From Escherichia coli O157:H7 (lineage in GTDB: Bacteria; Pseudomonadota; Gammaproteobacteria; Enterobacterales; Enterobacteriaceae): a stretch of 64,000 nucleotides of DNA. Shown here piece after piece: positions 33,001 to 39,000 of this stretch (positions are counted from its first letter, which is position 1; every line of letters begins with the position of its first letter). The position numbers are program-made. The stretch lies in assembly GCF_013167455.1 (NCBI RefSeq), contig NZ_CP038328.1; one strand, written 5' to 3'.

Positions 33001-36000
33001 GTGCCAGATCGCGTTTCTCAAACTTTCCTTTTTCCGGTTAACGTGACACACCAATAACTCTTGTCGAAAAAGCCAGCAAGCAGAAAGACCGGTATTCACA
33101 ACCACCAGCGCGTTTACTGTACTGGCGTGATTTCAGTCATAAAAAAACCCGCCTGGCGACGGGTGTAAAAAATCTTCTAACGTCAGGCATAAAACGCCCA
33201 TCGTTAGGGCAAATTTACCACAGATTCGGGAAAAATCAACAAAGCTATCTGGTCACCTTTTTCAGTTGTTGTTCTGCCCATGCTTCTTCAATATCAAACT
33301 GCACCACCAGCGTATCGTAAAAACGTTTAACTGTTTTTTTCCATGTATCAAGAGATATGGCATCGGTTACATTACATATGGCATTAAATGCCTCCGTTGA
33401 AGGTAATCTTTCATAGCCACGACCACCACAACGCTGGCAGTCTCTGATAACAGGCATACCACGTTTTACCGACTCTTCACGATGAATGGCAACACCGCGC
33501 CCACGAAAATCTTTACAGGCGGTGGAAACCTCCCCCTTCCCTCCACACTCCGGACAGGCAACTTTTACCACCTCCCTGACTTTTTTCCATTCCTCCCAGT
33601 AAGACGGATACACGCCTTTTGTGCACTTTGCCCACACTGGCGGCTTACCATCCGGATACTGGATCTTGTTTGTAAAAACCTCGCTTTCAATAAATTTTTT
33701 TCCGTGACAACAGGGGCACTGTTTTTTGCTCGCCGCGCTACGGGCATAATCTTCAAACGCATACGAAGCCATAATACGCATCACTGCCGGTTTTATTTCT
33801 GCCGGGAGTTTTCTTAACGCCGCCACGCGATCACACCGACTGAGTGCATATTCTGTCAGCAATTCTGTTGCCCGCTCTCTGTCATTCATACTAATGCCCA
33901 TTTTCCCAAGGAACGCAGAAAACCCCATCTCAGCCCAATTCTGTGTCATGCCCTGCGCGGCCATCACATCAGTGATACTCAGCGTATCTTTCGACGTTGA
34001 GGCCGATGCATCAGTCAGGCCGGGGGATTTTGGGGAGTAGTATTTCGGTAAATCTTCCAGTTTCATTTTTTGACCTGCCCTTCAAGCATTATGGGGTAAA
34101 TCTTCACCCCCAGACGTCCACCAGATACTGGCTGAGCACGAACGATATTGATTTCATCAAACTGCTCATCGTCCATTAGCAACCCCGCATGCGTCAGCGC
34201 ATCCAGCGGCGCTTTCAGAATATTGTCCAGGTCACGGCGGCGCTTATCCGGTGGCTCGGCAATAATCTTTATCGCCAGCCTTCCGGACAGGCTTAATTTC
34301 AGCCGCTGCTGGCGAACAATAAGCGCCACAGCCCGGCGATAACGCTCACCGGCTTTTGATACAAAATATGTGCTGCCACGACGTCGCCAGTAGGTGTTCA
34401 CCGTCGGCGGGTAAAGCAAAACAAACTCTATACGCATCAGTAACCTCTTTTACCCGAGCACGCCGGTTGCAAAGGCGTGATCAAGAAAACGAAAAATTAA
34501 ATCAACCTGGGAACCATGCTTTTCTTCGAACGCCAGCGGATCCGCATGAAGCTCGTTGTGATGCTCCCGACACAGCGGTAGCGTGAAAATATCGTGGGAT
34601 TTTGTTCCCATTCCGCCCTGACCATGACCAATCAGATGATGAGGATCGTCCGCTGGCTTACCACAACACGCACACGGCTGTGTCTTTACCCAGCGTGTGT
34701 ATTTCTCATTTACCCAGCGGCGACGTTTAGGTCGTTTCCTGAAGGATTCCGGAGACTCCGGATCAACGGCAATGCTGACCACCGTCTTTTCCTGTGGTGG
34801 GTTCTGTTGCTGGTGGGTGTGAGACGGTAGCGCAATATTTTTTGTGCGCTGCTTCAGTATGCTGGTGGCGGTCTGTTCTCCCGGTATGATGTCGCTTTCA
34901 CGGTATACGGAGCGGATTTTTTCCGCACGCAACCCCAGCGAACGACGTAATACCGCTTCCGGTAGCGCGTCCGCCACCTGATTGCGGACCGCCCACCAGG
35001 ATAATTCAGCCAGAGATAATTCACGCTCCTGTGCGCCATTCATTGCGTGACGGATGATGTCAATCATCCAGGCGGCCAGATTCTGTTGAGCAAGTTGATC
35101 CAGTGAATCAGATGTCTGCTCCCGCAGCTGGTTGTCGCAGTGCCAGCACAACACCATCGCGCCGGTACCGTAACGGTGAATGACGGTTTCGCTATGATGA
35201 TAATCACCGTGTAGCCACTGGCAGGATTTCACGTGACGTAATAACCAGTCAGACAGTGCACCAGCGCCACCCGCAGCACGGATCACCCGCTCATCGCTGA
35301 AAAATGGCAGTAGTGATTTATCTTCCGCCAGCGGCTGGTGAACGGCAGGTACAACCCCGGACGGCAGAGCTCGCATGCTTTTTGGTTCCGGCTCCACCAG
35401 TATTCTGCCGTTATGGAATGCTGACATTGATTCACGGCCTGGCTTAACGATAACCAGACCGAGTTCCGGTACCAGAACAGGTCGAAGTAATACCCGCACA
35501 TTACCTCCAGATCCGTTGCTGGAATGTGCGGGACGGACGCGGTGGCCGTTCGGAGTAAGGGAGCCTGACGGAGATTATCCAGTGACGGTAGTCGAGGCTA
35601 AGGGCTTTTTTAACCTCGCATCCGCGCCTGCGGTAACACTGAATGAGCCATTCGGCCTGTTCTTCAGTGCATGGGGGATGCTGGTACCAGTCAGATTTGA
35701 ATGCGTGAAAACACCGTCCGCGCCTGCTGGCAAAGACGGCAGAATCATCAGAATTGTATAATTTGGTATCGTGCGCCATCGGTTGTCTCTGCTGGCGCAG
35801 CAGGTGCCAGTTGTTCAGGCTGGCGTGCGAATTGTAAACCAGAATGCCAGGAAAAAACAAAACCCGCCGAAGCGGGTTAAGTGCGGGTGCGTTGAGGATG
35901 CCTGATTCATCAGAGGTGGCGAGGGATTTCTCCCTCGCCGGGTCTCTTACTCCTCAGGTTCGTAAGCTGTGAAGACAGCGACCTCCGTCTGGCCGGTTCG

Positions 36001-39000
36001 GATTCGTACCTCGCAGAGGTCTTTCCTCGTTACCAGTGCCGTCACTATGACGGTGATACAGATGACGATCAGGGCGATTAACATCGCCTTTTGCTGCTTC
36101 ATAGCCTGCTTCTCCTTGCCTTTCGGCGCGTAAGAGGCTAACCTACATGTGTCTAGCATGAAATTGGCCTCAGATTAATGTTAGGCGTCTTGCAGGACGC
36201 GTAATGTTAACTGGGGCTTTTCTCTGTCTACCTTACGGTGGCATGCCCGAGGCAGACAGCCTCAAGCACCCGCAGCAATTCTACTTAACTCTCGCTTTAC
36301 CGCAAACCGTTTTTACCCGATATGGGAATTCCCATATCGTAATGAATTCAGTTCCCTAGTCGATCCATCAAAAACACAACCAGGCAGTAAACGCCCACAA
36401 CAGCAATAACAGCCAGCGCACCTTCCATTGCCAGTGAAATATCATCCGACATATTCCCTCCTTTGGTGTGAATCCCGGCGAACGTTTTTACCCCCACCGA
36501 CAAATAACATATACTAAAAAATCAATAGCTATAGCAACGCCTGTAATTGCAAAGGCTTCAGGCCAGATCATTGGCGCACCTCCTGCGGCGGTTCTGGTAG
36601 CGGCATCCAGTCGGTTACATTGCGGCTCTGTGTTTCGAAAAATTCATCACCATTACGGACTACATCAAAAAACTCACCGTCTCGATATTGCGCATAAAGA
36701 ACGAATGCGCCATCACATAAAATAATTACGTGCTGACCATCATCCGGCATTCGCTCACTACAGCTTATCCAACCATCCGGAGTTACCGGATAGTTGGTTG
36801 ACGTTTCCGAGATTTCCCGAAAATTATTGGTTGACGAACCCTTATTTTCCCGAAAGTTTCCAGCCTGAAGCATGGCGGCGCGGTGACACCAGATAATCCA
36901 GCCAAGCGCCATATCCCATACCATGTAATCTCTATCGCCATTTTTTGCTCTGCGGCGATCTACAGATTCTCCGAAACGCTTCTCCATAAATAATTCATAG
37001 GCTGCTCGTTCATCCGATACTGCTGCCAGTGATGCCAGCGCAATCCGTGCCAGCTCTTCCGCTTCTTCTGCTGGAAGCACAACGTTGCTACCCGGTCCGT
37101 ATGTTTCGCGCCAATGCTGGATTGTCAGCAGTCGATCTTTGGTAATAGTGGTCATAGCTATTTCACCTTAATCTCAACATTTCGCAGCTTTAGCTCTACT
37201 GGCATGTCTGACTTTCCTGTTAATGCTAATGCGAGATTTTCTGGAGTAATGAGAGCAGTTATTGTTTTCCCCATCGCCAGACGAATAATCATTCGTATTT
37301 CGCGATCGTCACATGCTCCTGGTCGAACAATTGATATTTGTCCGTTCATCTCACTCTCCTTTGATGCGAATGCCAGCGACGCGTAATGCGTGTTCTAGGT
37401 CAATCAGGTAAAGCCAACTGCCATTTTCTTTAGGTATCATGACATGTCGCTCATCTGCATTTATCGGGTGTCCATATCGAAGGTCGTAGCGAGTCGGTAA
37501 TTGAACTTCCCGCGCTTCCAGTTCAGCAATACGCTTGCTCCCATCAGAGATAACGCCTTCGTAATACTCACGCTGCTCGTTGAGTTGTGATTTTGCTTCT
37601 TCCAGTCCATCCAGCAAATCAGCGATAATATCCGCTTCCCGATGACGGATGTGACGCTTAAACGCAGCAAGAGCCGCATCACAATCCCGTTCAGCATTTG
37701 GGCTGTCCGGGGTAGCCTGATACCACGCCAGCGTCGATTGATAGTTTTGTGCTGCCTCACGCAGTGCCTGATAGTCAATCTTGCCCACTGGCTGCCTCCT
37801 TTGCCGGGATTTCTAACTTTTGAGTGGTTGTATCAAATTCAAACAACTTAACCACGTCATCAAACAGGACATAATCACCATCAGGATCTTCAGTCATATC
37901 AGCGCCACAATCCTGACCGCACGAGTCGCAACCTCCCATATCAAGCTCGTATCGCTTCAGGTTCGCGATATTTGATAAATTCAGCGCCAGTATAGCCAGA
38001 TCATTAACCTCGTCTGCGATATACCCTGCACCATGTCCATACATTTCAATGCGGGATATGATTTCTTCTACACGTTGTTTTGTGATCGTCATTTTTCTCT
38101 TCACTCCGATATACAAGGATTACTACACCCCCTCTGCTGATTGCGCGAGCTGGATCCCCTGGTTCCATGCCGTCAATTCCGAAGGCTTCGAAAAATGCAT
38201 CCATTGCCTTCTGGCGTTGCTCCTGCTTACGGCGTTTATTCCATTTTTTCATGAACAACAGTGACAGCCATCGTCCGCTGCAGAACATAATGTAGAAATA
38301 ACCAAGAAGTGCCAGGCCGGCGTTCAGGGCCATATCAATCGTTATCGCCGGGTCAATATTCACTGCCCACCTCCTGAAAAATCACCGCATGGCCCGGTTT
38401 CTCCTCCAGTGCCAGCTCAGCCCCTGCACCTGCCGACTGCTGCCAGCCTTTCAGCATGTAAACCGCATCCACGCAACGGAGCATTGCCATGCAAATATCC
38501 ATGTAGTGTGGCTGAGTCAGCCCGTCCGGAAGTACTGCCGGGTTTAAAACGGTATGCCCTTCCCGTTTCAGCACCTCTTCCGTTTTGTGAAATGCCTCGC
38601 GGTTAAAATTTTCATATCCCGTCATCGGACCGGCGATATAAACCCTCACCCTCACTCCTGAACCCTCCTGTCGAAATAAACGTAGTTATTCACTGCGCCC
38701 AACTTCATCCCAAACTTTTCGGCAATTTCCCGTCGGGGTACACCACGCTGATGCAGTTGCCACGCCAGCTCAATATCACGCTGTGAACATTTGGCTGACT
38801 GGTGATAATCACCCCGTAACATCATGCTGATACCCAGTTCCCGCGCTTTCGTCCTGACGGCTGACTCACTACGGCCAATCAGATAACCGATGCTTTCGAC
38901 TCTCATCGTTCCCGCACACTGCCGGAGTATCAGGATTTCAGCCCAGCGCCACTTCTTCCAGCCACTCACCGCTGCTGCTCTCTGGTGGCGGTAATATCCC

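Follow-up and report, generated by a model that had tools for sequence, protein, structure and literature searches.

A probably functional hokD/hokW-type hok/mok/sok cassette in an Escherichia coli O157:H7 lambdoid prophage

Results

The toxin gene and the mok frame

We analyzed a window of 64,000 nt from E. coli O157:H7 (contig NZ_CP038328.1), to which all coordinates refer. A first-pass annotation had placed a hok/mok type I toxin locus in the nin region of a prophage, at 35947-36240. The locus is indeed there, with an intact toxin gene, an overlapping mok frame and a predicted antisense RNA complete with promoter and terminator hairpin, but the whole unit is longer on both sides: this span is too short because the putative hok promoter reaches 36306, the predicted mRNA 5' end lies at 36271 and the 3' UTR, which holds the fbi element and the terminator, runs down to ~35852. 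What the analysis shows directly at the O157:H7 locus are the sequence elements, how well they are conserved and how they are predicted to fold. The locus is already known, as a 451-bp stretch covering it is 100% identical to an O157:H7 locus that RefSeq annotates as hokD. The protein-coding features are the following:

35947-36102, minus strand: hok (hokD-type) toxin coding sequence, 51 aa (ORF list, Pfam, PHROG, comparison with K-12 HokD; identical O157:H7 sequence annotated as hokD)
36112-36115, minus strand: hok Shine-Dalgarno (SD) GGAG, within AAGGAGAAG (sequence)
35961-35964, minus strand: UACG motif at the Tyr47 codon, candidate TadA A-to-I site (Tyr to Cys) (sequence)
35947-36159, minus strand: mok ORF, 70 codons, ATG at 36159, in frame with hok and sharing its stop (ORF list)
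36168-36171, minus strand: mok SD GAGG, 8 nt upstream of the mok AUG

The toxin matches Pfam PF01848 HOK_GEF (E=9.7e-24, 83 bits for a cut-off of 22) and PHROG 251 'MokW-like host killing' (E=2.8e-33), while NCBIfam Hok-family models were matched below their strict cut-offs (48 vs 73 bits and 40 vs 89 bits). The ORF encodes 51 aa rather than the 50 first proposed; the near-identity to HokD proposed with it holds, with 50/51 residues shared with K-12 HokD and I16L as the sole difference. Together with the shared downstream neighborhood, this near-identity places the toxin in the HokD (RelF) orthologue group. Small ORFs upstream had no family match in NCBIfam or PHROGs.

Only three of 66 loci fail to conserve the hok SD, which persists even in those whose leader has been replaced, and the UACG motif is invariant in these 66 loci and also found in R1 hok and in hokW. 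According to a Hok survey, the HokD peptide is toxic when expressed and hokD is edited at the equivalent Tyr site (bioRxiv 10.1101/2025.08.07.668861). Full toxicity may require Tyr47-to-Cys RNA editing, which counts against full functionality.

The overlapping mok frame corresponds to the 70-codon ORF that runs from ATG 36159 through hok to the same stop. Being in frame with hok, it would yield an N-terminally extended Hok, in contrast to the R1 mok, whose peptide is in another frame. A mok ORF was found in all 60 intact homologues across three different frames: the same as here in 47, a 19-codon upstream ORF with a stop overlapping the hok AUG in 11, and another frame in two. As mok is kept throughout despite these differences, its translation rather than its peptide probably matters. 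In an Stx2a phage, the same in-frame mok/hok pair is annotated as two CDS. The heptamer CTGAGGC, which contains the mok SD, served as an exact-match 5' anchor for collecting extra loci.

Genomic setting and distribution

The proposed prophage setting is borne out by the annotation of a 100%-identical region of O157:H7 TR01, where replication protein P lies on one side of the locus and DUF968/RusA and lysis genes on the other; RusA and DUF6645 pseudogenes are annotated in the surrounding prophage. The 451-bp stretch is covered to at least 80% in 3947 of 5426 complete E. coli genomes, and the cassette is present in 78 phage records, Stx phages among them. Matches occur at up to 11 places per genome, and the Hok survey reports up to 18 hok homologues in one O157:H7 chromosome (bioRxiv 10.1101/2025.08.07.668861). 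Homology stops at the promoter on one edge and at the terminator on the other. Carrier sites vary, with the cassette found at different positions among phages and also on plasmids.

The hok mRNA and its predicted folds

The elements of the hok transcript are as follows:

36301-36306, minus strand: candidate hok promoter -35, TTTGCG, weak, 17 nt upstream of the -10 (sequence; putative)
36278-36283, minus strand: candidate hok promoter -10, TAGAAT, ending 6 nt before the G at 36271 (sequence)
35855-36271, minus strand: predicted full-length hok mRNA, ~417 nt (5' end from the Rfam model start and R1 homology, 3' end from the terminator)
35852-35878, minus strand: intrinsic terminator of the hok mRNA (scan: 7-bp stem with 5 G-C pairs, then TTGTTTTTTC)
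36260-36271, minus strand: tac element, 5' GGGUGCUUGAGG, paired with fbi in the full-length minimum free energy (MFE) fold
35885-35897, minus strand: fbi element CCUCAACGCACCC, paired with tac; retained in K-12 hokD
36213-36220, minus strand: ucb / anti-SD AAGCCCC, predicted partner of the mok SD (full-length fold) or of tac (3'-trimmed fold)
36134-36138, minus strand: dcb GCCUC, paired with the mok SD in the 3'-trimmed fold (positions 1-372; in silico only)

A simple consensus promoter scan of 35700-36600, with a threshold of 4/6 per hexamer, missed both the hok and the Sok promoter, each of which has one hexamer below this threshold. Both were therefore placed by conservation and by homology to R1-type and hokW loci. 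The Stx2a-phage hokW copy carries an identical hok promoter stretch; in the R1-type locus, TATGAT stands where the hok -10 TAGAAT sits, and diversity is low at this -10.

The 417-nt hok mRNA has an MFE of -174.7 kcal/mol (z=-7.5) with its 5' and 3' ends closed on each other, and the mok SD is sequestered in this fold. Across 65 distinct homologues the closed structure is 94% paired, vs ~40% when partners are slid, and fifteen pairs are changed on both sides, a number reached in 0/500 shuffles. Covariation is modest because the family sample is closely related: within the hokD/hokW lineage, the CDS and most helices never vary. The tac element itself is invariant (pi = 0 in 175 loci). The tac/fbi helix is 95.6% paired in the 65 homologues, and its changes are one-sided and G-U-tolerated only. 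As this helix has no double changes inside the lineage, its backing comes from the R1-type comparison, where GGGUGC/GCACCC here and GGCGC/GCGCC there form a compensated difference. These predictions argue that long-range tac/fbi pairing closes the full-length hok mRNA.

When the mRNA was cut in silico to positions 1-372, tac paired with ucb and the mok SD with dcb, and the hok SD was unpaired; cuts at 365 and 360 yielded other folds. The tac/ucb and SD/dcb rearrangement after 3' trimming is that of the R1 model (described in PMC9841398).

A covariance-model search, suggested by the first-pass annotation for the sok promoter and the mok translational activation element, returned Rfam RF01794 ('sok') at 114.1 bits (gathering score 59) over the full model (1-157), at 36271..36097 on the hok sense strand. 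The match points to a conserved hok mRNA leader structure. We rejected it as proof of Sok: it lies on the wrong strand, ends at the hok AUG and recurs on the hok strand of the R1-type and hokW loci. The model thus recognizes the hok mRNA leader and not Sok; annotators should be warned that, despite its name 'sok', it labels the hok sense strand.

The Sok antisense RNA

A Sok-type RNA had been expected around 36100-36240 without being delimited; we could place both a promoter and an RNA within this interval:

36116-36144, plus strand: Sok promoter TTGCCT-17 nt-TAACCT (sequence; conserved; R1 and sokW promoters at the same position)
36151-36221, plus strand: predicted Sok antisense RNA, 71 nt (fold, promoter spacing and sokW length; putative ends)

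The promoter (TTGCCT/TTGACC, spacer of 17-18 nt, TAACCT/TAATCT) is kept in nearly all 60 intact homologues, has TTGCGC-17-TATCCT as its R1 counterpart and differs from the Stx2a-phage hokW copy by one spacer base, although its -10 matches the consensus at 3/6 positions only. Mutations in the -10 of sokW from prophage Sp5 abolished antitoxin activity (PMC8621323). The start G lies 7 nt after the -10 in 39/39 distinct alleles. It opens a 9-nt free 5' tail, GUCUAGCAU, followed by a long hairpin and a U-run, GGGGCUUUU. The 76-nt Sok fold reaches -32.9 kcal/mol (z=-6.3) and its complement only -19.9, making the Sok strand 13 kcal/mol more stable. This architecture is the same in the 39 alleles and in the R1-type locus, and is unchanged in a variant with a different hairpin sequence; the hairpin core is invariant across 175 loci. 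The predicted length equals the 71-nt complementarity reported for sokW, a paralogue whose transcription was demonstrated (PMC8621323). Folds and promoter position thus suggest a cis-encoded Sok that is driven by a promoter of its own, begins with a single-stranded 5' tail whose sequence complements the mok initiation region and closes with a terminator hairpin.

We considered whether the copy could be a silent relic whose parts are recognizable but which is unexpressed or unable to kill, and which hitch-hikes in a recently spread prophage. The first-pass annotation had proposed that the absence of an antisense promoter or fold would indicate such a relic; both are present. Regulatory parts are all intact, with tac and the Sok hairpin core among those invariant across 175 loci, and decay is not expected to keep a 5'-3' closing helix and a strand-asymmetric Sok hairpin. 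Promoter hexamers missed by the consensus scan, which could be taken as a sign of silence, are the same in the experimentally active hokW-sokW type (PMC8621323). Leaders do get lost, in K-12 hokD and in 6/66 sampled loci, and the pseudogenes in the surrounding prophage point the same way. Native chromosomal hokA, hokB and hokC are reported, as cited in the Hok survey, to be unable to mediate post-segregational killing (bioRxiv 10.1101/2025.08.07.668861); against this, HokD and HokW peptides are toxic on expression (same survey; PMC8621323). On balance, a relic appears highly improbable. Altogether, the locus is very likely a complete type I toxin-antitoxin cassette, a hok/mok/sok system of the hokD/hokW lineage that is probably functional and forms a self-contained module of ~450 bp in a lambdoid prophage.

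Comparison with hokW-sokW, K-12 hokD and plasmid R1

In E. coli O157:H7, hokW-sokW of Sakai prophage 5 (Sp5, an Stx2 phage) is an experimentally working type I system (Takada et al. 2021, PMC8621323). HokW is toxic and is neutralized by sokW from its own promoter in an RNase III- and Hfq-dependent manner; upon mitomycin C treatment sokW disappears and HokW is induced, and phage release is halved when the system is deleted (PMC8621323). The locus studied here shares with it a 51-aa Hok, an in-frame 70-codon mok, the leader, the Sok hairpin, fbi and the Sok promoter hexamers, with ~91% DNA identity to the Stx2a-phage hokW copy over the cassette. They differ in the Sok-tail/mok-start allele (GUCUAGCAU here, GUUCAGCAU there), in the Hok C-terminus (…FTAYEPEE vs …FVDYESEK), in the downstream terminator and in phage position, which is a nin-like region here whereas the Stx2a-phage copy sits beside a TraR/DksA-type gene cluster.

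K-12 hokD (relF), in the cryptic prophage Qin, has the same hok SD, 3' UTR, fbi and terminator, and in both genomes a small hypothetical gene and then DUF968/ydfU follow downstream. In K-12, rem separates hokD from the small hypothetical gene that precedes ydfU; in the window, it is missing from this position. Everything upstream of the hok SD is missing from K-12, including tac, mok, Sok and the Sok promoter, and relBE abuts the remaining gene. K-12 hokD is therefore the truncated remnant of a locus whose complete form is found in the window.

In hok/mok/sok (parB) of plasmid R1, all elements follow one another in the same order and at the same spacing as here: tac, ucb, the Sok terminator hairpin, the mok SD and AUG, the Sok -10/-35 in the mok/hok overlap, the hok SD, the UACG Tyr codon, fbi and the terminator. 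In both loci, Sok consists of a free 5' tail and a hairpin, which is ~16 nt longer in the O157:H7 locus. The Hok proteins are substantially unlike: HokW, near-identical to the Hok described here, has 44% identity to R1 Hok (PMC8621323). The carriers also differ, a prophage here and a conjugative plasmid for R1.

Discussion

Few antisense-RNA systems have been studied as thoroughly as the hok/sok family. The locus is a minor discovery, since RefSeq already annotates it, its family is well studied and the same pathogen has a characterized paralogue. Its value is one of annotation: the analysis gives exact coordinates for a previously unannotated Sok, both promoters, tac, ucb, dcb and fbi, and shows the complete version of the truncated K-12 hokD.

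For the O157:H7 locus, we infer transcription, processing, translational coupling and a biological role. Following the R1 model, a weak promoter would produce a stable hok mRNA of ~417 nt whose 5' tac pairs with the 3' fbi. In this closed form, ucb would mask the mok ribosome-binding site, leaving mok and hok untranslated. Slow 3' trimming would take away fbi and let tac pair with ucb, exposing the mok initiation region and the target hairpin. The free 5' tail of a short-lived 71-nt Sok, made from the opposite strand, would then pair with the mok start region, and the full duplex would block translation of mok, and hence of hok, and be cut by RNase III. Should Sok synthesis stop, for example upon loss of the element or prophage induction, accumulated hok mRNA would be translated, and the 51-aa Hok would insert in the inner membrane and kill or lyse the cell. 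In both contexts that we examined, the cassette points in the same direction as the phage early genes; speculatively, read-through transcription after induction might shut off the Sok promoter, which faces the other way, and thereby arm the toxin.

By analogy with hokW-sokW, the likeliest pay-off in a prophage would be to assist lysis and the release of phage upon induction; alternative roles are prophage retention and exclusion of other phages. An active cassette could mainly serve addiction, with cells killed once they lose or excise the prophage, or abortive-infection defense against other phages upon shut-off of host transcription. According to the cited papers, the R1 system stabilizes plasmids and, at high copy number, excludes T4 (bioRxiv 10.1101/2025.08.07.668861; PMC8621323). 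The varied positions of the cassette in phages and plasmids are as expected for a mobile add-on, and PHROGs files PHROG 251 under 'moron, auxiliary metabolic gene and host takeover'. The sequence itself in no way tells these roles apart from lysis. The sole direct prophage test, that of hokW-sokW in Sp5, found that lysis timing and phage yield were affected and that growth was unchanged as long as the prophage was not induced (PMC8621323), and the Hok survey reports no hok enrichment next to defense systems (bioRxiv 10.1101/2025.08.07.668861). We consider a main role in addiction or defense possible but less probable than lysis assistance, which we retain as the likeliest function.

A variable patch at the Sok tail

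Copies that are otherwise conserved diverge at one hypervariable patch, made up of the Sok 5' tail and its target:

36145-36168, unstranded: hypervariable patch, comprising Sok nt 1-18 and the 6 nt before the Sok start, and coinciding with the mok start region and the loop of the target hairpin

With pi = 0.29, it is five to six times as diverse as the remainder of the leader (0.046); the value at hok third codon positions is 0.055. The 187 loci carry 22 alleles, whose Sok-tail types include GUCUAGCAU (here), GUUCAGCAU (hokW type) and a GCCGUUCAU type. Because of this patch, the target-hairpin helix aligns poorly and is 63% paired in the homologue alignment. When folded separately, target hairpins are weak (-0.4 to -5.3 kcal/mol), and the bases facing Sok nt 1-6 fall mostly in a predicted loop in 8/11 alleles, which is suggestive only of Sok-facing bases lying in a loop across most major alleles.

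The alleles might be specificity cassettes, such that each Sok controls only its own hok mRNA in multi-copy genomes, an idea that we regard as speculative and rather unlikely. The patch could nevertheless be of some interest for cross-talk between the multiple hok/sok copies of EHEC. That copies from the same genome always differ in their Sok-tail allele was rejected, as 7/19 within-genome pairs are identical, compared with 0.10 expected from random pairs; some of these identical pairs may be duplicated prophages.

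An intact hok/mok/sok cassette

The window carries an intact hokD-type member of the long-known hok/mok/sok family, which is already in RefSeq and has a characterised paralogue in the same organism. The first-pass annotation, which had proposed a hok/mok locus at 35947-36240 with a Sok RNA alongside, is supported in this interpretation; what our analysis contributes is positions for the RNA parts that lacked annotation, together with a caution on the strand of the Rfam model RF01794. The features are:

36283-36278, minus strand: candidate -10 (TAGAAT) of the hok promoter with a weak -35; identical in the hokW-type copy, below the promoter-scan threshold
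36159 through hok, minus strand: mok equivalent from ATG 36159 to the stop shared with hok, 70 codons, in frame with hok (ORF listing)
36102-35947, minus strand: hok coding sequence, ATG to stop, 51 codons (ORF listing and reading of 35500-36700)
36116-36121 and 36139-36144, plus strand: Sok promoter, TTGCCT, 17 nt, TAACCT; same position as TTGCGC-17-TATCCT of R1
36151-36221, plus strand: predicted Sok RNA, a 9-nt unpaired tail, a long hairpin and GGGGCUUUU, last base 36221

The hok product, MKQQKAMLIALIVICITVIVTALVTRKDLCEVRIRTGQTEVAVFTAYEPEE, matches Pfam HOK_GEF (E=9.7e-24, 83 bits, cut-off 22) and PHROG 251, "MokW-like host killing" (E=2.8e-33). It shares 50 of 51 residues with K-12 HokD, bearing out the near identity claimed at first pass, although its length is 51 aa and not the 50 given there. 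The overlapping mok frame noted ahead of hok at first pass is present and in frame with it, with GAGG 8 nt upstream of its ATG. A Stx2a-phage record labels one member of the corresponding in-frame pair "host cell-killing modulation protein" and the other "small toxic membrane peptide". Among homologues, mok is in frame with hok in 47; in 11 it is a 19-codon upstream ORF whose stop overlaps the hok AUG, and in 2 it lies in another frame, which fits the view that all that matters about mok is its translation.

At its Tyr47 codon, hok has a UACG motif (35964-35961, minus strand) that is invariant in 66 loci and retained in R1 hok and hokW. It corresponds to the TadA-dependent A-to-I editing site (Tyr to Cys) described for hokC, hokD and hokE in a recent hok survey, which also reports HokD toxicity, enrichment of hok in prophages and up to 18 hok copies in one O157:H7 chromosome (bioRxiv 10.1101/2025.08.07.668861).

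A Sok antisense RNA is predicted on the plus strand

The first-pass annotation had expected Sok within about 36100-36240 and took the lack of any antisense promoter or fold as the sign of a silent relic. Both were found on the plus strand: the promoter begins at 36116 and the predicted RNA falls inside this interval, with a stable fold. Across 60 intact homologues, the -35 hexamer is TTGCCT or TTGACC and the -10, with two exceptions, is TAACCT or TAATCT; in 39/39 distinct alleles the base 7 nt past the -10 is a G. The unpaired tail, GUCUAGCAU, is the complement of the mok AUG and the following six bases. A 76-nt version of Sok folds at -32.9 kcal/mol (z=-6.3), whereas the complementary strand over the same span reaches only -19.9 as several G-U pairs turn into A-C mismatches, an asymmetry indicative of selection acting on the transcript of the plus strand. 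Two loci with a shorter Sok hairpin of different sequence keep both the architecture and the strand asymmetry, and R1-type Sok follows the same plan.

The covariance-model check suggested at first pass gave a strong match to RF01794 ("sok"), yet on the hok sense strand, and so did not detect Sok. The full model matches 36271..36097 on the minus strand with 114 bits (gathering score 59), ending at the hok AUG. It likewise ends at the hok AUG on the hok sense strand in the R1-type plasmid locus (L203, 182-353) and in the Stx2a-phage hokW locus (L204, 1545-1719). With 3/3 loci tested matching on this strand, the family, named "sok antitoxin", models the leader of the hok mRNA rather than the antisense transcript.

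The hok mRNA is predicted to be highly structured

The hok mRNA was taken to run from G 36271 to the intrinsic terminator at 35878-35861 and its T-run; TAGAAT at 36283-36278 is a plausible -10 for it. As delimited, the 417-nt RNA folds at -174.7 kcal/mol (z=-7.5 against shuffles). In the predicted full-length fold, tac (the 5' GGGUGCUUGAGG) is paired with fbi (CCUCAACGCACCC, 35897-35885), and the mok SD with AAGCCCC (ucb). Trimming in silico to 1-372 leads tac to pair with ucb and the mok SD with GCCUC (dcb), freeing the hok SD; other cut points give other folds. At that one cut point, the tac/ucb and mok SD/dcb refolding would correspond to the switch described for R1 (PMC9841398).

Mapped onto 65 distinct IMG/VR homologues, the structure shows standard pairs in 94% of cells, against about 40% with slid partners, and two-sided changes in 15 pairs, a number reached by 0/500 shuffles. 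Homologue pairing lends the predicted structure only moderate support, the sample being closely related and the structure derived from one member. The tac/fbi helix shows only one-sided G-U changes within the lineage; between the window (GGGUGC/GCACCC) and the R1-type locus (GGCGC/GCGCC), however, the difference is compensated.

The Stx2a-phage hokW-type copy is about 91% identical to the window cassette and shares its promoters, leader, Sok hairpin and fbi. For hokW-sokW of Sakai prophage Sp5, Takada et al. found that HokW (51 aa) arrests growth and that the arrest is averted by sokW transcribed from its own promoter; protection is lost when the sokW -10 is mutated, sokW in trans restores it partially, and RNase III and Hfq contribute (PMC8621323). 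Mitomycin C causes sokW to disappear and HokW to rise in a way that depends on RecA, and deletion of hokW-sokW delays lysis and halves phage release (PMC8621323). The reported sokW complementarity is 71 nt (PMC8621323), and the predicted Sok here, counted from 36151 through its U-run, has the same length.

A hypervariable patch at the Sok tail

Over the homologous loci, the 24 bases at 36145-36168 reach pi=0.29; the remainder of the leader has 0.046, third codon positions of hok have 0.055 and the 3' UTR has 0.13. This patch covers Sok nt 1-18 and the six bases before the Sok start, and thus the mok start region on the opposite strand; it occurs as 22 discrete alleles among 187 loci. Selection for non-cross-reacting Sok RNAs is unproven as an explanation, since copies within one genome showed no allele avoidance (7/19 pairs identical, 0.10 expected for random pairs). 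Relaxed constraint in a loop or recombination between old haplotypes would explain the diversity more simply.

Distribution, leader loss and neighbouring elements

The 451 bases at 35840-36290 recur with 100% identity in E. coli O157:H7 strain TR01, whose annotation names the coding sequence hokD. The listed TR01 neighbours are all co-directional with hok: replication protein P and a set of small DUF genes flank it on one side, and beyond its other end come DUF968, a RusA pseudogene, holin and lysozyme, making "prophage nin region" a fair description. At least 80% of the 451-base stretch is found in 3947/5426 complete E. coli genomes, with as many as 11 places in a single genome. Over 175 loci, nucleotide diversity rises steeply outside about 36300 (promoter) and 35860 (terminator), and the cassette occupies a different position in Stx2a phages and also occurs on plasmids and in P1-like phages. 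With such sharp borders and varied locations, it behaves as a self-contained add-on gene.

In K-12, the match is confined to the segment that begins shortly before the hok start codon and ends at the terminator, and relE and relB abut the hok ribosome-binding site, identifying K-12 hokD as a truncated remnant of a window-type locus. The K-12 locus (L082) and IMG/VR loci L003, L023, L080, L055, L060 and L076 keep the hok SD, coding sequence, fbi and terminator, with the leader (tac, mok, Sok) swapped for unrelated DNA. Fully conserved sequence begins at the hok SD in these IMG/VR loci, as in K-12. Leader replacement in several loci suggests that the antitoxin side has been lost repeatedly.

A perfect 22-bp palindrome (CGATATGGGAATTCCCATATCG, 36318-36339) borders the conserved cassette immediately upstream of the hok promoter; it has a single copy in the window and is found with unchanged spacing in 38/204 loci. 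Neither strand provides a U-run, so it is no obvious terminator. Next come two very small hydrophobic ORFs on the minus strand (36348-36452 and 36488-36571): one encodes 34 aa (MSDDISLAMEGALAVIAVVGVYCLVVFLMDRLGN), has AAGGAGG as a strong ribosome-binding site and is listed as hypothetical in RefSeq; the other encodes 27 aa. Neither has a family match in Pfam, NCBIfam or PHROGs. Promoter-like sites lie antisense to them on the plus strand (36428-36455 and 36487-36515), an arrangement reminiscent of other small toxin/antisense pairs.

Farther away, Rfam STnc100, a gammaproteobacterial sRNA, matches 32307-32473 (minus strand, 101.6 bits), by offset within a coding sequence to which the identical TR01 region assigns a DUF826 protein. 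Rfam sar RNA, the P22-type regulator that acts antisense on the antirepressor gene, matches 10100-10166 (plus strand, 66.7 bits), which suggests that another part of the window holds a P22-like immI-type module.
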